From a virus (Duplodnaviria > Heunggongvirae > Uroviricota > Caudoviricetes): a stretch of DNA of 28,621 bases. Each line of letters opens with the position of its first letter. The stretch's first letter is position 1. Shown in pieces: positions 7,645 through 17,094 of the stretch. Made by a program: the position numbers and the translations under genes. The stretch is from the IMG/VR virus record IMGVR_UViG_2939147180_000004, one strand, 5' to 3'. The notes beneath the pieces were generated by a model, which was not told where the DNA came from, did no database searches, and worked only from the letters and a program-made list of their open reading frames with translations.

Positions 7645-8550
7645 CTATATTTCCAGACATCTGTTATCACTTAACCCATTACAAGCCCGCTGCCGCAGAT
7701 ATTCCCGTGGCGAGCGATAACCCAGCGCACTATGCGGATGCCATTCGTTATAATGCTCGAACGCCTCTGCAAGGTTCTTTGCTGCCGTTAACCCGTCTGG
7801 TTTGGGCATGATACTGATGTAGTCACGCTTTATCGTTTTCACGAAGCTCTCTGCTATTCCGTTACTCTCCGGACTCCGCACCGCCGTGTTCTTCGGTTCA
7901 AGTCCCAACATCCGGGCGAACTGGCGTGTTTCATTAGCCCGGTAGCATGAACCATTATCCGTCAGCCACTCCACTGGAGACGACGGAAGATCGTTGCCGA
8001 AGCGGCGTTCCACCGCTCCCAGCATGACGTCCTGTACTGTTTCACTGTTGAAGCCGCCGGTAGTGACCGCCCAGTGCAGTGCCTCACGATCACAGCAGTC
8101 CAGCGCGAACGTGACACGCAGTCTCTCTCCGTTATCACAGCAGAACTCGAACCCGTCAGAGCACCATCGCTGATTGCTTTCTTTCACGGCCACTCTGCCT
8201 GTATGTGCCCGTTTCGATGGCGGTACAGCAGGTTTTCGCTCAAGCAACAGCGCATTCTGGCGCATGATCCGGTAAACACGTTTGGCATTGATCGCAGGCA
8301 TACCATCAAGTTCTGCCTGTCTGCGAAGCAGCGCCCATACCCGACGATAACCATACGTGGGCAGCTCTCCGATAACATGGTGTATACGGAGAAGCACATC
8401 CGTATCATCAGTGTGACGACTGCGGCGGCCATCCATCCAGTCATCGGTTCGTCTGAGAATGACGTGCAACTGCGCACGCGACACCCGGAGACAACGGCTG
8501 ACTAAGCTTACTCCCCATCCCCGGGCAATAAGGGCGCGTGCGCTATCCAC
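7645..8550 (-). CDS. insD: IS2 transposase OrfB (InsD, 301 aa, DDE integrase-like)
   Basis: ORF 7645..8550 overlapping insC in the -1 frame; recognised as the IS2 InsD sequence. Confidence 0.9.
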
Positions 8551-8873
8551 TTTTTTGCCCGTCCATATTCAACGGCTTCTTTGAGGAGTTCATTTTCCAT
8601 CGTTTTCTTGCCGAGCAGGCGCTGGAGTTCTTTAATCTGCTTCATGGCGGCAGCAAGTTCAGAGGCAGGAACAACCTGTTCTCCGGCGGCGACAGCAGTA
8701 AGACTTCCTTCCTGGTATTGCTTACGCCAGAGAAATAACTGGCTGGCTGCTACACCATGTTGCCGGGCAACGAGGGAGACCGTCATCCCCGGTTCAAAGC
8801 TCTGCTGAACAATTGCGATCTTTTCCTGTGTGGTACGCCGTCTGCGTTTCTCCGGCCCTAAGACATCAATCAT
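8508..8873 (-). CDS. insC: IS2 transposase OrfA (InsC, 121 aa)
   Basis: [40 protein letters not shown]... (HTH); internal ATG of ORF 8508..8918; ends near the A6G slippery site used for the InsCD frameshift. Confidence 0.9.
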
Positions 8874-9273: not shown

Positions 9274-9735
9274 ATGACCCCAATAAAAATATTTATGACT
9301 ATTGCTGATTTCAAACGGCCTAAATTGGAGCTCCCAAACGGGGCAAACAAACTACTACTGCACTCTTGCTGTGCTCCATGTTCCGGTGAAGTGATGGAGG
9401 CGCTTCAGGCCTCGGGAATCGACTATACCATCTTTTTCTACAACCCGAACATTCATCCTCAGAAAGAGTATTTAATTCGTAAGGATGAGAATATTCGCTT
9501 TGCTGAACAACACGGCGTGCCATTTATTGATGCTGATTACGACACAGACAACTGGTTTGAACGTGCCAAAGGAATGGAATGGGAACCCGAGAGGGGGATC
9601 CGTTGTACCATGTGTTTTGACATGCGTTTTGAGCGGACAGCGCTGTACGCTGCTGAAAATGGTTTCAGTGTGATCAGCAGTTCACTGGGCATTTCACGCT
9701 GGAAAAATATGCAGCAGGTTACCGTCACTGGATAA
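9274..9735 (+). CDS. DUF208 / QueH-like protein (epoxyqueuosine reductase family homologue), 153 aa, possibly shortened at the C-terminus
   Basis: Motif [12 protein letters not shown] plus ...[13 protein letters not shown]... and ...[14 protein letters not shown]... match my recollection of the QueH (DUF208) Cys-rich signature. No good RBS at either candidate start. Confidence 0.55.
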
Positions 9736-9810: not shown

Positions 9811-10860
9811 GTGCGGGTATTACTTCAACCTGTTCTGGTACCGGAACTCGGGCTGGTGGTCGTTAAGCCGGGCCGTGAATCCATGCCGGTATTCCACAAT
9901 ACCCGGGTACTGGTGGAGCCGGAACCGAAAAGCATGCGTAATCTGCCGTCCGGGGTCGTTCCTGCCGTTCGCCAGCCGCTGGTGGAAGACAAAACATTGC
10001 TGCCGTTTTTCAGTAACGCACGGGTAATTCGTGCTGCTGGTGGTGCTGGTGCATTGTCTGACTGGCTGTTGCGCCATATTAAATCCTGCCAGTGGCCACA
10101 CGGCGATTATCATCACAGCGAAACCGTTATTCACCGTTATGGTACCGGCGCAATGGTGTTGTGCTGGCACTGCGACAACCAGCTGCGTGACCAGACATCC
10201 GAATCACTCGAGCAACTTGCTCATCAAAACCTGTCAGCATGGATGATTGACGTCATCGGTCACGCAATAAGCGGTACGCAGGAGCGTGAATTATCTCTGG
10301 CTGAATTATCCTGGTGGGCGGTCCGCAATCAGGTGGCGGACGCGCTACCGGAAGTGGTATTACGTCGCTCGCTGGGATTACCAGCGGAAAAAAACTGCTC
10401 GGTGTACCGCGAAAGCGACATCGTACCGGGAGAGCAGACCGCCACCAGCATATTGAAACAGCGCACAAAAAATCTTGCACCGTTGCCTCACGCCCACCAG
10501 CAACAAAACCCATCACAGGAAAAGACGGTGGTAAGCATCACCGTTGATCCAGAGTCTCCGGAATCTTTCATGAAGCTGCCTAAACGTCACCGTTGGGTTA
10601 AGGAGAAATACACACGCTGGGTTAAGACACAGCCGTGTGCTTGCTGCGGTATGCCAGCCGACGATCCGCATCATCTGATTGGTCACGGGCAGGGCGGAAT
10701 GGGAACCAAAGCACATGATCTCTTTGTGTTGCCTTTGTGCAGAAAGCATCACGACGAGTTGCATACGGATACCGTGGCATTTGAAGAGAAGTATGGCTCC
10801 CAACTGGAGCTGATTTTTCGATTTATCGATCGCGCGCTGGCAATTGGTGTGCTGGCCTAA
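9811..10860 (+). CDS. DUF968-family prophage protein (YdfU-like, 349 aa) with C-terminal HNH-like Cys/His motif
   Basis: GTG start at 9811 with GGAGGT RBS 4 nt upstream; C-terminus ...[43 protein letters not shown]. Sits directly upstream of Q, where lambdoid phages carry nin-region genes. Confidence 0.7.
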
Positions 10861-10877
10861 TTTTGTGGAGTAAGTTG

Positions 10878-11255
10878 ATGCGTGATATTCAGATGGTTCT
10901 TGAGCGTTGGGGGGCATGGGCGGCTAATAATCATGAAGATGTGACCTGGTCGTCCATTGCCGCCGGTTTTAAGGGATTAATTCCTTCAAAAGTAAGATCT
11001 CGTCCGCAATGCTGTGACGATGACGCGATGATCATTTGTGAATGTATGGCTCGCCTGAAAAAAAACAACAGCGATTTACATGATTTATTGGTGGACTATT
11101 ATGTCGGCGGCATGACTTTTATGGCGCTTGCACGTAAGCATGGGCGATCTGATTGTTGGGTTGGCAGGATGCTCCAGAAAGCTGAGGGCGTAGTGGAGGG
11201 CATGCTGATGGTGTTGGATCTCCGATTGGAGATGGATGCTGATTGTTCGAAATAA
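10878..11255 (+). CDS. Q: Late-gene antiterminator Q (QuuD/phage-82-type), 125 aa
   Basis: [33 protein letters not shown]...[32 protein letters not shown] matches my recollection of E. coli DLP12 QuuD. ATG 10878 with GGAG RBS 7 nt upstream. Confidence 0.85.
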
Positions 11256-11354
11256 TTAAAGGAAAAGTTGCTGTCTGATTTTCATTAGTCTAACATTTTA
11301 AATGTTGGAATCGCAACGTAGTTATTATCATATAACAGCTTGTTTCCTGATTTA
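11256..11354 (+). promoter_or_regulatory. Probable late promoter (pR'-like) / Q-utilisation region
   Basis: About 100 bp between the Q stop and a strong terminator. Candidate hexamers TTGCTG (11268..11273), 17-bp spacer, TAACAT (11291..11296); an alternative TTGGAA is at 11305. Exact hexamers uncertain. Confidence 0.3.
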
Positions 11355-11383
11355 GCCAGCCTCCCCAAAGGCTGGTTTTTTTC
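11355..11383 (+). terminator. Rho-independent terminator (tR'-like) downstream of Q
   Basis: Stem CCAGCCT / AGGCTGG (11356..11362 and 11369..11375) with CCCCAA loop, followed by T8. Confidence 0.6.
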
Positions 11384-11410
11384 TAATAAGTATCATTTCG
11401 GGTGGGGATT

Positions 11411-11935
11411 TTATTGTTTAACCCATAATAGTTCATTGACATTGAATCCCAACTTTTGAGCGGTACGCACATAGTCTGCTTTTACATTATCTGGAATAGT
11501 TTGGGTCCTTGCCAGAATCCATAGGTATTCTCTGTTCGGACCACTGACAAGAGCATACTTATACTCATCATCCAGTTTGATTACATTATAGCCACCATAG
11601 AAGGGGCCAAAAAACGAAACTTTCAACGCTGCAGTTTTAGTATCTCCAGTAAAGTATGCTTTACCTTCGCTCTCGCTCCATTTGTTTTTCGTTGGATCGT
11701 ATCCACGGTTAAGTACGCGAATCCCTCCGTCGTTCCGTTTTTCATAAGTAGCGCTGACCTGTTCCAGACCACGTTCGAACCAGTTCTCGAGGCGAGCTAT
11801 TTCATACCATTTTCCGAGGTAGCGGTTGGCGTCAAAATTTGTAATCGGCTGCACACCTTTAGGTGGTGTCGGGGCCTTACATGCTATAAGAGTGAAAGAG
11901 AGTGCAATGCCAGTCAACACAGGCCATAACTTCAT
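11411..11935 (-). CDS. Outer-membrane lipocalin lipoprotein (Blc-like), 174 aa
   Basis: Lipoprotein signal with lipobox LIAC; ...FDANRYLGKWYEIARLENWFERGLEQVSATY...KVSFFGPFYGGYNVI...YLWILART... closely parallels E. coli Blc. AGGA RBS 8 nt upstream. Confidence 0.8.
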   Translation of the reverse strand: MKLWPVLTGIALSFTLIACKAPTPPKGVQPITNFDANRYLGKWYEIARLENWFERGLEQVSATYEKRNDGGIRVLNRGYDPTKNKWSESEGKAYFTGDTKTAALKVSFFGPFYGGYNVIKLDDEYKYALVSGPNREYLWILARTQTIPDNVKADYVRTAQKLGFNVNELLWVKQ

Positions 11936-12127
11936 AATAAATCCTGTACTTTTGATAGTTGAGAGTAAGTATGAAAGATAGATGAGTACGACCGATCACT
12001 TAAAGAACTTTCCTACTATATTAGGAATAGTCAATAACAGAAAAATTGTCAGTGATGAAGCCAGAAAGGCAATTTAGTCCGTGCACTACAAAGTTTATGT
12101 GTTAATGAATTAGTCAAGGGGGAGGAA

Positions 12128-13087
12128 ATGATAAAAAAACCTGTGATTGGGATCAGCGGTTGTTTGGGCGGTTCTGCTGTTCGTTTTGATGGTGGTCACA
12201 AAAGAGATGACTTTTTAATGGACAAATTAGTGGAATGGGTAACATTCAGACCAGTATGTCCGGAAATGGCTATAGGGCTGCCAGTTCCGCGTCCTGCTCT
12301 ACGACTTGTGCGCTCGAAGCAAGGAAATATACGGATGTGTTTCAGCCACGACCAGAATGAGGATGTGACAGAGAGAATGACAGAGTTTAGTCGTTCTTAT
12401 ATGGACAAATTAAAGGATGTATCGGGGTTTGTGGTTTGTGCTAAATCTCCCAGCTGTGGCATGGAGCGCGTGCGTGTCTATGATGAAAATGGTAATCGAG
12501 GTCGTAAAGATGGAGTGGGACTATTTACGAGCACTTTGATGGAAAAGTTTTCCTGGCTACCGGTTGAAGAGGATGGGCGATTACATGATCCAGTGCTTCG
12601 TGAGAATTTTATTGAAAGAGTTTTTGCTTTGCATGAGCTCAATCACCTTTACAAGGAGAAATTATCAAGAAGAGAGTTATTAGCTTTTCATAGTCGTTAT
12701 AAGCTTCAGTTGTTGGCGCATAGCCAGGCAGGCTATAAAGATATGGGACCATTTGTGGCTGCAATACACGAGTGGGCGGACCTTGAATCATACTTTGAGG
12801 TGTATCGTGATAATCTGATGGCGATTCTCAGAAAACCAGCATCACGTAAAAATCACACGAATGTGCTGATGCATATACAGGGGTATTTTAGTAATTACTT
12901 AAGTACACGCCAGCGTAAAGAGTTGAGCGAGGTTATACTTAACTATCGCTTTGGCACATTGCCTCTTCTTGCGCCGTTGACTCTGCTGAAGCATTATCTG
13001 GGTGAGTATCCTAATGATTACTTGCTTACACAGAATTACTTCGATCCCTATCCGGAAGAACTGGCTCTAAGACTGATGGTGAATTAA
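12128..13087 (+). CDS. DUF523 (TudS-like Fe-S desulfidase fold) - DUF1722 fusion protein, 319 aa
   Basis: N-terminus VIGISGCLGGSAVRFDGGHKRD...CPEMAIGLPVPRP...KSPSCG fits DUF523; the C-terminal half resembles YbgA-type DUF1722. Strong RBS GGGGGAGG upstream. Confidence 0.65.
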   Translation: MIKKPVIGISGCLGGSAVRFDGGHKRDDFLMDKLVEWVTFRPVCPEMAIGLPVPRPALRLVRSKQGNIRMCFSHDQNEDVTERMTEFSRSYMDKLKDVSGFVVCAKSPSCGMERVRVYDENGNRGRKDGVGLFTSTLMEKFSWLPVEEDGRLHDPVLRENFIERVFALHELNHLYKEKLSRRELLAFHSRYKLQLLAHSQAGYKDMGPFVAAIHEWADLESYFEVYRDNLMAILRKPASRKNHTNVLMHIQGYFSNYLSTRQRKELSEVILNYRFGTLPLLAPLTLLKHYLGEYPNDYLLTQNYFDPYPEELALRLMVN

Positions 13088-13493
13088 CTGTATGCGATAT
13101 CATCTGAAAGTGATGAGTTCCTGTATGCAGGATATTTACAATCGTAAAAACTACGCTATGATGCTCATAGTGTCAGTTTTTATAAAAATCCTGTTCACGC
13201 TAAAGAAAACATTGAGATGCAATTTAATGTTGGTAAACATACCAGCCCCAAAAGATTTTATTCAATCTGTTTTTATATGAAGATATTTCAAGTGAATATA
13301 AAGAGCATATAATATTATTATTGCACGCAGCTATTATAATATAACAGATTAGTTTAATGATTTGTTTTTTGTGAGTTAAACACATGGTTTTATAGTTGTG
13401 ATGCAATGAGATTTTCCTTATTGTTGAACTGGCGAATATTGATTTTCCACCTATACTTACCTGGTGTAACCCCAATGATATCAGGTGGATAAT

Positions 13494-14207
13494 ATGCCAT
13501 ACATATGTTCTATCATTTTGGTGTTGAACTCGTTTGGTGTCCGAATTGGTAAAGAAGATATTTTGTTTAAAAAAGGAAATGCTGTCCTCATTGAATACAA
13601 TTTAAAAGATCTTTTTTCGTCAAATACAGATCATCTAATGATCGTAGATATTGAGGAGAAAACAGTTAATGATTTCTTTAAAAACTACACACTCTCACCT
13701 TTTTCTGTAAGAAGGTTTTATCCGTCATACTTGATAGTAGAATGTGAAGATTTTTCATTGTTAAGGAACTTGGTTGCATGCTTGAATTGTGATAGCAAAA
13801 CCGTGGATGTAGTTAGAAATCAAATATCACTTGCATGTCTTGCTGTCTTATCTTCAGAGAAAATAGTGCAAAGTTTTTTGTTCGGAAGTCTTAATAGCTT
13901 AGGTTGTAAAGTTAAGGCTATTATTCACTCGGATATCTCAGCGTCATGGAGACTTTGTGATATATCTTCAAGATTATATATGAGCGAGAGTTTGTTAAAA
14001 AGAAAATTAAAAGACGAAGGATTATCGTTTAGTAAATTAATTCTTGAAGAACGAATGATGATGGCGCAAAGATTATTGATCTACAGTAACCATACTGTCG
14101 GCAAGGTGGCGGGAATATGCGGGTATGACAATGCATCATATTTTGTAAGTGTTTTTAGAGGATATTTTGGTGTGCCTCCGCACCAATATTTATCAAGATT
14201 TTCTTAG
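13494..14207 (+). CDS. AraC/XylS-family transcriptional regulator (AppY/GadX-like), 237 aa
   Basis: C-terminal AraC-type HTH (...VGKVAGICGYDNASYFVSVFRGYFGVPPHQY); N-terminus resembles AppY; AGGTGG RBS 5 nt upstream of ATG 13494; sits in an A+T-rich segment. Confidence 0.8.
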   Translation: MPYICSIILVLNSFGVRIGKEDILFKKGNAVLIEYNLKDLFSSNTDHLMIVDIEEKTVNDFFKNYTLSPFSVRRFYPSYLIVECEDFSLLRNLVACLNCDSKTVDVVRNQISLACLAVLSSEKIVQSFLFGSLNSLGCKVKAIIHSDISASWRLCDISSRLYMSESLLKRKLKDEGLSFSKLILEERMMMAQRLLIYSNHTVGKVAGICGYDNASYFVSVFRGYFGVPPHQYLSRFS

Positions 14208-14275
14208 AAGATATGATGTGATGGCATTTTATAAAGTTATTTTTTGAAGTGTAAGATTATACGATATTTTTAGCT

Positions 14276-14306
14276 ACGCCAGAATAATTGCTGGCGTTTT
14301 TCTTTT
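14276..14306 (+). terminator. Rho-independent terminator after the AraC-family gene
   Basis: ACGCCAG / CTGGCGT stem (14276..14282 and 14291..14297) followed by TTTTCTTTTT. Confidence 0.55.
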
Positions 14307-14397
14307 TGAATAGATGTTCGGGCCTTACGCTAATGTAACTTCTTTCCTTCTTCGAACCAAACCGTGTACACCATCCGTTATCTGCGGAGGTGAGGCT

Positions 14398-14613
14398 ATG
14401 AAATCCATGGATAAGTTAACAACGGGCATCGCCTACAGCACCTCTGCAGGCAGTGCTGGCTACTGGTTTTTACAGTTGCTCGATAAAGTCACGCCCTCAC
14501 AGTGGGCGGCAATAGGTGTATTGGGTAGTCTGGTATTTGGCATGCTGACGTATCTGACAAACCTTTATTTCAAGATTAAAGAAGACAGGCGTAAGGTTGC
14601 GAGAAGAGAGTAA
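14398..14613 (+). CDS. S: Class II holin, phage 21 S-like pinholin (71 aa) with dual-start MKSM motif
   Basis: [66 protein letters not shown]; GGAGGTGAGG RBS; internal start of ORF 14314..14613. Confidence 0.85.
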
Positions 14614-14617
14614 TCCA

Positions 14618-15169
14618 ATGACTCAAGACTATGAACTGGTTGTGAAAGGAGTTCGCAATTTTGAGAATAAAGTGGCGGTAACTGTAGCCTTACGGGACAA
14701 AAAACACTTTGACGGTGAAATTTTTGACCTGGACATCTCGCTGGACCGTGTTGAAGGTGCCGCGCTGGAGTTTTATGAGGCAGCAGCCAGAAGGAGCATC
14801 AGACAGGTCTTCCTGGATGTTGCTGCCGGGTTATGTGAAGGGGATGAGCAGTCGCCGGAAAAGCGCCCCATAATTTTAGAGGCGCAGAATGTGTGGATAA
14901 CCTACAAAGGAAAGCTACCGGGAAGAATTACTGGTTCTCTGAAGACGCCACCGACGGCATTGCGGTCAGAAAAAGATGATATTGAATCGCCCATTGAAAA
15001 ACTGGAGGGCAGCGTCGCTGATCTGAATAAAAAATTGTCGGTGCTGATTCCTTCTGAAGATGAAAAAAAACGCCGCGATGAGCAGTTTGCGGCGTTTTAC
15101 GATTATTGCATTGAAGTTACTCGCAGGAATTTTGTGAAGATTTTTGAGGAGGGTAAATCTCTTCAGTAA
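14618..15169 (+). CDS. DUF1327-family protein (YdfR-like), 183 aa, inserted between holin and endolysin
   Basis: MTQDYELVVKGVRNFENKVAVTVAL... matches my recollection of the Qin YdfR N-terminus; ATG 14618 just after the holin stop, with purine-rich RBS. Confidence 0.6.
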   Translation: MTQDYELVVKGVRNFENKVAVTVALRDKKHFDGEIFDLDISLDRVEGAALEFYEAAARRSIRQVFLDVAAGLCEGDEQSPEKRPIILEAQNVWITYKGKLPGRITGSLKTPPTALRSEKDDIESPIEKLEGSVADLNKKLSVLIPSEDEKKRRDEQFAAFYDYCIEVTRRNFVKIFEEGKSLQ

Positions 15170-15377
15170 GCTTATTGGCGGACGCTGCAATTAATTCAGG
15201 AAGGTCCGCAAGGTCATCTGTCAGTGGATATGATGAAAAATCGGCGGCAGTTCTGTTAAGAAGCGCTTTAACTAATTCCTTTTCCTTCTCCGGCAACAAG
15301 TTGATTAGAGCTACGACTGCTTGCCTGAGTGCGATTAAATCAGCAAAAGTTTGTTTAGGTAGATTTGTGTAATCCAT
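15117..15377 (-). CDS. Hypothetical protein (86 aa) encoded antisense within the lysis cassette
   Basis: ATG at 15377 (minus) with GAGG RBS 5-6 nt upstream; fills the otherwise empty 320-bp gap between the DUF1327 gene and the endolysin; 3' end overlaps the DUF1327 gene by 53 bp. Confidence 0.45.
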   Translation of the reverse strand: MDYTNLPKQTFADLIALRQAVVALINLLPEKEKELVKALLNRTAADFSSYPLTDDLADLPELIAASANKLTEEIYPPQKSSQNSCE

Positions 15378-15490: not shown

Positions 15491-16518
<1,028 letters not shown>

Positions 16519-16881
16519 ATTAATATTAAATCGGATTATTTTTAGCGCTGAATGTGAAATTTAAATAAAAAGGACTCTTCCATGAGTCAAAATCCTTGAA
16601 ATCTTAAGGGTAAGATAAAAGGTCATTAGACAGAATGACACGTTTTATTAATAAATAAAGCTATTGTTTCATTCGTGTGTTTTTCTTTACAAAAGTAATC
16701 CTTGCTATGGTTGGTTAATCATGCGTTAATGGTGTTCTGGTTTGTTACAAAATTATCTGAAGCAGTCATTGTTATAATTTTATTATTTGTACCTCTTGAG
16801 ATTTCCTTGTTGGTTTTTCTCTCTGATATTTTTTTTCGGACCATTCTGCCCAAGGGCTAACTTCTTCAAAAGGTAATAATG

Positions 16882-17094
16882 ATGTCTAACACAATGACTG
16901 GTTTAGTGAAATGGTTTAACCCTGAAAAAGGTTTTGGTTTCATCACGCCGAAAGATGGTAGCAAAGATGTGTTTGTCCATTTCTCAGCTATTCAGAGCAA
17001 CGATTTCAAAACGTTAACTGAGAATCAGGAAGTCGAATTTGGTATTGAGAACGGACCTAAAGGCCCCGCGGCTGTTCATGTTGTGGCACTTTGA
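16882..17094 (+). CDS. cspI: Cold-shock protein, CspA family (CspI/CspB-like), 70 aa
   Basis: [70 protein letters not shown]; preceded by a long A+T-rich leader typical of cold-shock genes. Confidence 0.85.

Follow-up and report, generated by a model that had tools for sequence, protein, structure and literature searches.

A blc–rudS pair and an AraC-family regulator in the Q-to-holin slot of a defective Escherichia coli prophage: a probably composite cargo block

In lambdoid phages, the RNA polymerase modified by Q at the late promoter pR' must traverse whatever cargo lies in the slot between Q, pR' and the terminator tR' on one side and the holin gene on the other before it reaches the lysis genes. 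The content of this slot is variable: DLP12 has the antisense porin gene nmpC and K-12 Qin has cspF/cspB at the same position, which is also that of the Shiga toxin genes (stx) of Stx phages. In this study, we analysed a stretch of 28,621 nucleotides (nt; IMG/VR record IMGVR_UViG_2939147180_000004; hereafter the window), which carries three genes in this slot: a Blc-type lipocalin gene (blc), antisense like the porin gene of DLP12; a fusion of the TudS (DUF523) and DUF1722 domains (rudS); and a gene for an AraC/XylS-family regulator (araC). We consider it probable (about 0.7) that this block, in the Q/terminator-to-holin slot of QuuD/Q21-type lambdoid phages of E. coli, is a cluster of morons composed of two modules with different histories. 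In contrast to the stx, nmpC and cspF/cspB cargo, it would be a composite of two modules and three genes, with no toxin.

The closest described relative of the fusion gene also comes from a phage. Fusions of TudS and DUF1722 were named RudS in 2024 and shown to remove 4-thiouridine (s4U) from tRNA (Jamontas et al. 2024, PMC11417400). RudS_vir, which is gp66 of phage 1H12 and contains Cys12, Cys44 and Cys110, lowered s4U in E. coli tRNA when overexpressed; RudS lessens growth arrest after ultraviolet A (UVA) irradiation, and E. coli is said to be without RudS (PMC11417400). The island context of RudS_vir is not discussed in that paper. The window protein shares 91.8% identity with RudS_vir and has the same architecture of 319 amino acids (aa), with the 2-thiour_desulf/DUF523 domain (PF04463) at residues 7–149 (5.8e-40) and DUF1722 (PF08349) at residues 192–309 (9.4e-40). 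When it is aligned to the TudS structure 6Z92, its C12, C44 and C110 match C10, C43 and C104 of TudS, the three [4Fe-4S] ligands, and these positions are the same as those listed for RudS_vir and RudS_ST. It also has E46, R55, S107 and S109 in the motifs CPEM, PVPRP and KSPSCG, equivalent to E51, R60, S111 and S113 of RudS_KT, and RudS_vir shares these Glu/Arg/Ser/Ser residues. Judged by these domains and residues, the fusion gene is that of a RudS tRNA 4-thiouridine desulfidase (an ‘eraser’), an iron-sulfur enzyme that would convert tRNA 4-thiouridine to uridine; the first-pass annotation, in which it was a thio-nucleobase-enzyme homologue, is amended to that extent. Removal of s4U, demonstrated for RudS_vir, is predicted for the window allele. 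Phage 1H12 moreover has the same layout of Q (gp64), Blc, RudS, an AraC-like gene and holin (gp68), but the window rudS is a different allele, with 8% divergence, and lies in a defective prophage at the Qin site, whereas RudS_vir belongs to a viable phage.

The lipocalin has its best known relatives in the chromosomal Blc of E. coli (PDB 3MBT, 1QWD and 2ACO), with which it shares the Lipocalin_2 fold family and a lipoprotein signal, and blc has already been given as a frequent lambda moron (PMC6969025). The window protein matches Lipocalin_2 (PF08212) at 7.5e-43, scores 312.6 bits against the NCBIfam Blc model (NF007786; cut-off 267) and finds the solved structures of E. coli Blc at E 8e-67, with 62.6% identity to 3MBT over 155 residues. 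Its signal peptide, MKLWPVLTGIALSFTLIAC before a K, and its lipobox, L-I-A-C at residues 16–19, were read from the translation without a dedicated predictor. As a lipoprotein of the Blc type, it would be placed in the outer membrane and may bind lysophospholipids or fatty acids. Despite this kinship, the lipocalin is closer to homologues that stand next to rudS in Enterobacter, Leclercia and Citrobacter (mostly 75–80% identity) than to the E. coli chromosomal protein; across the blc homologues upstream of rudS in other enterobacteria, identity ranges from 68 to 80%.

These homologues were found in a chromosomal survey, in which one genome per species was scanned and which yielded 62 non-E. coli loci with a RudS 66–76% identical to that of the window. 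A blc homologue lies upstream of rudS on the opposite strand in 42 of the 62; the pair is either contiguous, as in the window, or separated by one or two genes. Two Citrobacter genomes have the contiguous arrangement, with gaps of 188 bp (Citrobacter sedlakii) and 229 bp compared with 192 bp in the window, and the C. sedlakii pair stands in a non-phage context, between transporter genes and rluF/lysC-type genes. The divergent orientation is thus that of the window, whereas the chromosomal proteins are 66–80% identical to the window's, and in most genera, Enterobacter, Leclercia and their relatives, a gene for an MlrA-like MerR regulator and a transthyretin-like gene intervene between blc and rudS. 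Because blc and rudS are chromosomal neighbours, and because the phage Blc is nearer to the Blc of those neighbourhoods than to that of E. coli, joint capture is the simplest account of the pair, and the two genes were probably taken together from an enterobacterial chromosome in which they were neighbours. Why the three genes of the block travel together had been described as unexplained by known modules. Existing literature and synteny mostly answer this puzzle: it is largely resolved for blc and rudS, as chromosomal neighbours, with araC as an independent moron.

Two further settings of rudS were seen in the survey. In Pectobacterium colocasium (L013 391..6960), a conserved cluster of SDR, amine oxidase, DUF1365, CFA-synthase-like, DUF2878, an unassigned 196-aa open reading frame (ORF) and DUF3833 ends with rudS, and this cluster may be the native physiological context of RudS. 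On the Citrobacter murliniae chromosome (L022 6001..9348), a RudS homologue 72% identical to that of the window lies in a prophage, where DnaC-like and PerC-like genes precede it and a DUF968 gene follows, and this suggests an independent capture by another phage at a different position.

The third gene has its described counterparts among prophage-borne regulators of acid resistance. PsrA is ecs1087 (PMC13502914), PatE has been assigned to O-island 8 in review, and PatE, PsrB and AppY activate AR2 genes, which are acid-resistance genes of the gadE/hdeA type (PMC10877973, PMC10057817). The window protein has a C-terminal double helix-turn-helix (HTH_18 at residues 161–237, 3.1e-16; HTH_AraC, 6.1e-11) and is 47% identical to ECs_0287 of Sakai prophage Sp1 over 237 aa, without gaps and with the N-terminal domain included. 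It is likewise 47% identical to PsrA (ECs_1087) over 160 aa, and 30% identical to AppY over the full length. Sakai prophage Sp1 is presumably O-island 8. Because of the O-island 8 assignment, and because ECs_0287 is the Sp1 gene that matches the window regulator, we take ECs_0287 (Z0321) to be PatE. These identities place the regulator in the PatE/PsrA/AppY clade of the AraC/XylS family, so that the family given in the first-pass annotation stands, while its label ‘AppY-like’ gives way to a closer kinship with PatE and PsrA. Orthology to YdeO was considered and rejected, as the protein scores 112.3 bits against the NCBIfam equivalog NF007407, for which the cut-off is 348. PatE, PsrA, PsrB and AppY have the size, the two-part architecture, the prophage location and the A+T-richness of the window regulator, and PsrA and PatE-like genes likewise lie downstream of Q. 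The window regulator nevertheless differs from PatE and PsrA at more than half of its aligned positions and from AppY still more, and it is annotated merely as ‘hypothetical’ or ‘helix-turn-helix domain-containing’. By analogy with the characterised clade members, the gadE/hdeA acid-resistance genes are its most likely targets, as a best guess. In Sakai Sp4 (L077 17239..19669), the annotated psrA (195 aa) seems to lack part of its N-terminus; translation from an earlier start in the same frame begins with MVVVCSVIMV..., in agreement with the N-terminus conserved in this family of regulators.

Relatives of araC occupy the same kind of slot by themselves. One phage (L071) has an 84% PatE-like gene alone between a PF06323-type Q, with a strong terminator after it, and an S21-type holin gene, and the PatE-like gene is followed by a hairpin like the second terminator of the window block (GCCAGCATTATTGCTGG plus a T run). 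In another phage (L070), a 57–60% relative lies directly after a lambda-type Q. The chromosomal blc–rudS pairs, on the other hand, carry no AraC gene of the island type. Sequence comparison thus presents the regulator gene as an independent moron, separate from blc–rudS. A remnant pR' or tR' in the 406-bp spacer between rudS and araC was considered and rejected, as homology with the AraC-only phages begins just 16–19 nt before the araC start codon.

The two halves of the block also differ in divergence and in base composition. Between island variants, synonymous divergence (dS) is 0.04–0.29 for Q, blc and rudS, compared with 0.33–0.59 for araC and 0.55–0.69 for the holin gene, and the alignment with 1H12 breaks at 13318..13399, inside the A+T-rich spacer. 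Because dS differs and the alignment breaks at this place, the region reads as a mosaic of a left and a right half. The G+C content is 43.8% in blc and 43.2% in rudS, with 34.4% in the intergenic region between them, but 31.0% in the spacer and 33.5% in araC, in agreement with the first-pass annotation, which had described 13.1–14.3 kb, including the region upstream of araC, as A+T-rich. All cargo genes depart in composition from the flanking phage genes (Q 47.4%, holin 46.3%) and from the window as a whole (47.4%).

An alternative account is that the three genes form one co-adapted module, in which the AraC protein is the local regulator of blc and rudS and the purpose is, for example, protection of envelope and tRNA under stress. 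It has in its favour a near-complete linkage (979 to 1,063 genomes per part), the presence of the trio in the same 12 phages, the origin of the partial copies examined as IS1 deletions, and the precedent of Enterobacter, where the MlrA-like MerR gene puts a regulator inside the blc–rudS neighbourhood. However, neither blc nor rudS accompanies the close relatives of the regulator that stand alone in the slot or at prophage ends; the chromosomal pairs are without such an AraC gene; G+C and synonymous divergence change across the spacer joint; and the characterised clade members act on AR2 genes of the host. We therefore regard a single module as quite unlikely and favour the composite of two modules.

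The block is frequent in E. coli. Of 5,426 complete genomes, 979 contain 80% or more of the Q-to-holin stretch and, with the genes counted singly, 1,063 contain rudS and 995 araC, so that about 18–20% of the genomes carry the block. Every E. coli rudS copy examined lies in the cargo slot of a lambdoid prophage, and prophages integrated beside ybhC, at the lambda attachment site, also carry the block. Among phage records, all three genes occur in the same 12 lambdoid entries, namely IdasGreatGrand and 11 records of an infant-gut collection, 1H12 included. Matches with 60% and 81% coverage were considered as natural one-gene and two-gene forms in E. coli and turned out to be IS1-mediated deletions. 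Two short metagenome-assembled contigs binned as ‘Candidatus Nanosynbacter’ (L056 and L061; a Saccharibacteria bin) carry the island with proteins 84–98% identical, and are almost certainly binning contamination.

Comparison of related Q-to-holin intervals bears out the proposal that the block is a variable insert and not part of a conserved core. Between the same Q and holin types, phage 4A7, DLP12 and many genomes have an antisense OmpC/NmpC-like porin gene, and one genome has a DNA methyltransferase gene with two small ORFs. Homology with the porin-carrying phage 4A7 stops at 11237 and resumes at 14378; across porin-type and AraC-only phages it resumes at 14367–14378. Slots with other Q types differ again: K-12 Qin, which occupies the same chromosomal site as the window prophage, has cspF/cspB behind a lambda-type Q. 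Sakai Sp4 has a CAAX protease gene, psrA and tRNA genes after its Q. The block is therefore an insert at a variable moron site.

The window itself is an entire prophage at the Qin site of E. coli, from about 20 to 28621 (L001 4139..32759), between rspB and ydfJ in strain w264, and several complete E. coli chromosomes match its Q-to-holin stretch with 100% identity. It has an integrase gene at its left end and IS2 inside a DUF977 gene (about 7645..8873); in the RefSeq annotation of a 100% identical genome, its genes for terminase, tail and early regulators are given as pseudogenes or fragments, and the annotation contains no intact repressor gene. This copy of the prophage is defective and decayed. 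The block could accordingly be seen as inert DNA that hitch-hikes in a decaying prophage with no current function, a view to which the IS2 insertion and the pseudogenised terminase, tail and early genes lend support, as do the IS1 and IS3 insertions and deletions that affect the island in several genomes. Yet all three ORFs are intact, and the ratio of nonsynonymous to synonymous divergence (dN/dS) across the variants is 0.07–0.24 with dS up to 0.59 (blc 0.07–0.23, rudS 0.11–0.24, araC about 0.2), which shows all three cargo genes to be under purifying selection. In addition, viable phages and roughly one genome in five carry the block, and the orthologue RudS_vir is enzymatically active (PMC11417400). 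Inert cargo is, in our judgement, very improbable, and we retain the reading of a composite cluster.

The signals around the cargo were examined within the borders given by the Q stop at 11255 and the holin start at 14398, both of which the ORF map, Pfam and RefSeq place as the first-pass annotation did. Q matches Phage_antitermQ (PF06530) at 8e-51 and, weakly but significantly, the Q21 structures 6P18/6JNX (E 5e-9), and the holin matches Phage_holin_2_1 at 8.9e-34. The strong terminator proposed after Q is indeed the best terminator-like site of our scan, in which 8 such sites were observed compared with 3.6 +/- 1.8 expected from shuffles: a hairpin at 11354..11377 (9 pairs, 6-nt loop) is followed by a T7 run to 11383, the fold has a z-score of -4.5, none of 200 shuffles folded equally well, and the hairpin is unchanged in four diverged island variants. 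Read on the minus strand, it is without a U tract and would therefore be a poor terminator for blc. The terminator proposed to close the block was found as well. An Rfam scan of 10800..14700 returned a single sub-threshold match, on the terminator hairpin (28.6 bits versus 50), and no known small RNA or riboswitch.

Upstream of the first terminator, TTGCTG-17-TAACAT is a plausible candidate for pR', the late-promoter-like element suggested for this region. Its -35 is kept in four island variants, and its -10 is TAACAT in two of them and TAATGT in the other two. A transcript from this site would be about 80 nt long and would stop at the first terminator. From the sequence, the promoter can be given only as this candidate, and a Q-binding element and a pause site could not be identified. 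The palindrome AACATTT-T-AAATGTT (11292..11306) over the candidate -10 was considered as a Q-binding site and dropped, as it is not conserved in 1H12-type variants. Within the cargo, the divergent intergenic region should hold the promoters of blc and rudS. The promoter-like site of the spacer, TTTACA-16-TATGAT, is unchanged in three diverged variants, with insertions and deletions in the middle of the spacer. It overlaps a weak hairpin and T run (13153..13173) just past the rudS stop codon, and 13135..13173 may act both as rudS terminator and as araC promoter.

From these elements, a working scheme of the block can be proposed, for which we infer promoters, Q read-through, regulator targets and lysogen phenotypes. 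The first module would be the back-to-back pair of blc and rudS, acquired as a unit from the chromosome of an enterobacterium, and the second a moron of promoter, gene and terminator, whose PatE/PsrA-like AraC regulator would switch on gadE and hdeA of the host. Each of the three genes would be transcribed in a lysogen from a promoter of its own, and tR' and the terminator at 14276 would insulate the cargo from the lysis genes. The Q-modified polymerase of an intact phage, starting at pR', would have to traverse all 3.1 kb of the block before it arrived at the lysis genes, and late read-through would boost rudS and araC, which lie in sense, and cross blc in antisense. Such Q-driven expression is expected in intact phages. 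The host would gain an s4U eraser for tRNA that is absent from laboratory E. coli, with less growth delay in near-UV, a further lipocalin in the envelope and a changed regulation of acid stress.

This scheme makes rudS a fitness factor of the lysogen. It might instead be chiefly an auxiliary gene of the lytic cycle on the Q-dependent late transcript, where stripping of s4U keeps translation going after the inducing UV or blunts a tRNA-directed host response. The gene lies in sense orientation directly downstream of pR' and tR', it is kept in plaque-forming phages, the C. murliniae prophage appears to have captured its homologue independently at a different position, and the effect of RudS on UVA-induced growth arrest (PMC11417400) would suit such a role. 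Against this stand the upstream divergent intergenic region, which is like that of the chromosomal counterparts and suggests autonomous expression, and the purifying selection on rudS in many defective prophages, the window copy included. A chiefly lytic role is, to our mind, decidedly improbable. A wider version is still speculative and, we think, unlikely: Q-driven rudS would erase the near-UV sensor s4U8 late in the cycle, avert or relieve tRNA cross-linking and stringent arrest at UV induction and so protect phage yield, with the lipocalin and the regulator as parts of a co-selected package. If this were true, about one fifth of E. coli genomes would have obtained this stress package only via lambdoid phages. 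We return to the composite block of two modules, whose genes would be expressed from their own promoters in the lysogen.

Several observations weigh against the composite scheme or parts of it. The blc–rudS intergenic DNA does not align with the chromosomal loci, so that a direct donor cannot be named, and because of this loss of alignment we infer joint capture from synteny and from protein similarity of 66–80%, no close donor having been found. Apart from IS1 deletions, separation of the trio is hardly ever seen in E. coli, which would also fit selection for the trio as a unit. As to function, RudS_vir was the least active on tRNA among the RudS enzymes assayed, and was assayed by overexpression only (PMC11417400), and the regulator, at only 47% identity to PatE and PsrA, may have other targets. 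The candidate pR' has a weak -35 that fails the -35 criterion of the scan, and the site was missed by the consensus scan; the island promoters in general are guesses from consensus sequences. Finally, because the prophage is decayed, Q-driven expression is doubtful in the window copy, where it may never occur.

The coordinates of the slot and its cargo are collected in Table 1; the domain searches upheld all three cargo genes on the strands first proposed for them.

Table 1. Features of the Q-to-holin slot and its cargo, in window positions
Feature	Position	Strand	Remarks
Q, QuuD/Q21 family	10878..11255	+	Pfam PF06530; RefSeq CDS; left border of cargo slot
Candidate late promoter pR'	11268..11296	+	TTGCTG, 17-nt spacer, TAACAT; read from sequence
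tR'-type intrinsic terminator	11354..11383	+	9-bp G+C-rich stem, 6-nt loop, U7 tract
Blc-type lipocalin lipoprotein	11411..11935	-	174 aa; antisense to late operon
Divergent blc/rudS intergenic region	11936..12127	.	192 bp
rudS, TudS(DUF523)-DUF1722 fusion	12128..13087	+	319 aa; Pfam domains, RudS_vir identity
A+T-rich spacer	13088..13493	+	406 bp; promoter-like site 13135..13162; joint about 13250..13400
AraC/XylS-family regulator	13494..14207	+	237 aa; RefSeq start 13494
Second intrinsic terminator	14276..14302	+	Hairpin 14276..14297 plus T-rich tail; closes AraC cassette
Right junction	14367..14378	+	Resumption of homology with other phages
S21-type pinholin gene	14398..14613	+	Phage_holin_2_1; RefSeq essQ

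Outside the block, a few other features of the prophage deserve mention. The holin protein starts with MKSM, the dual-start motif of the S21 pinholin. Between the holin gene and the lysozyme gene (15491..16024) lie a YdfR/DUF1327 fragment and an antisense ORF (15117..15377) with no Pfam match. Downstream of the lysis cassette and directly before the cspI/ynfQ cold-shock genes, 16500..16950 is another strongly A+T-rich stretch (28–33% G+C) and probably another moron region. In the nin region, 9274..9735 is a shortened epoxyqueuosine reductase (QueH) gene directly upstream of the DUF968/YdfU gene; it matches Pfam QueH at 3.1e-46 over profile positions 1–126 of 175 and is a pseudogene in RefSeq.

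Most parts of the block have already been described in the literature, so that the understanding of such sites is unchanged and the value of this analysis is one of annotation. It nonetheless brings together three points on E. coli and its lambdoid phages. A tRNA-modification eraser, rudS, reaches E. coli by phage, although the species has been described as being without RudS (PMC11417400). The block also holds a very common, uncharacterised regulator of the PatE/Psr/AppY family, whose relatives rewire acid resistance and virulence regulation. As a probable composite, it would moreover be an example of how such islands form, with a chromosomal gene pair and an independent regulator moron joined at an A+T-rich recombination joint.

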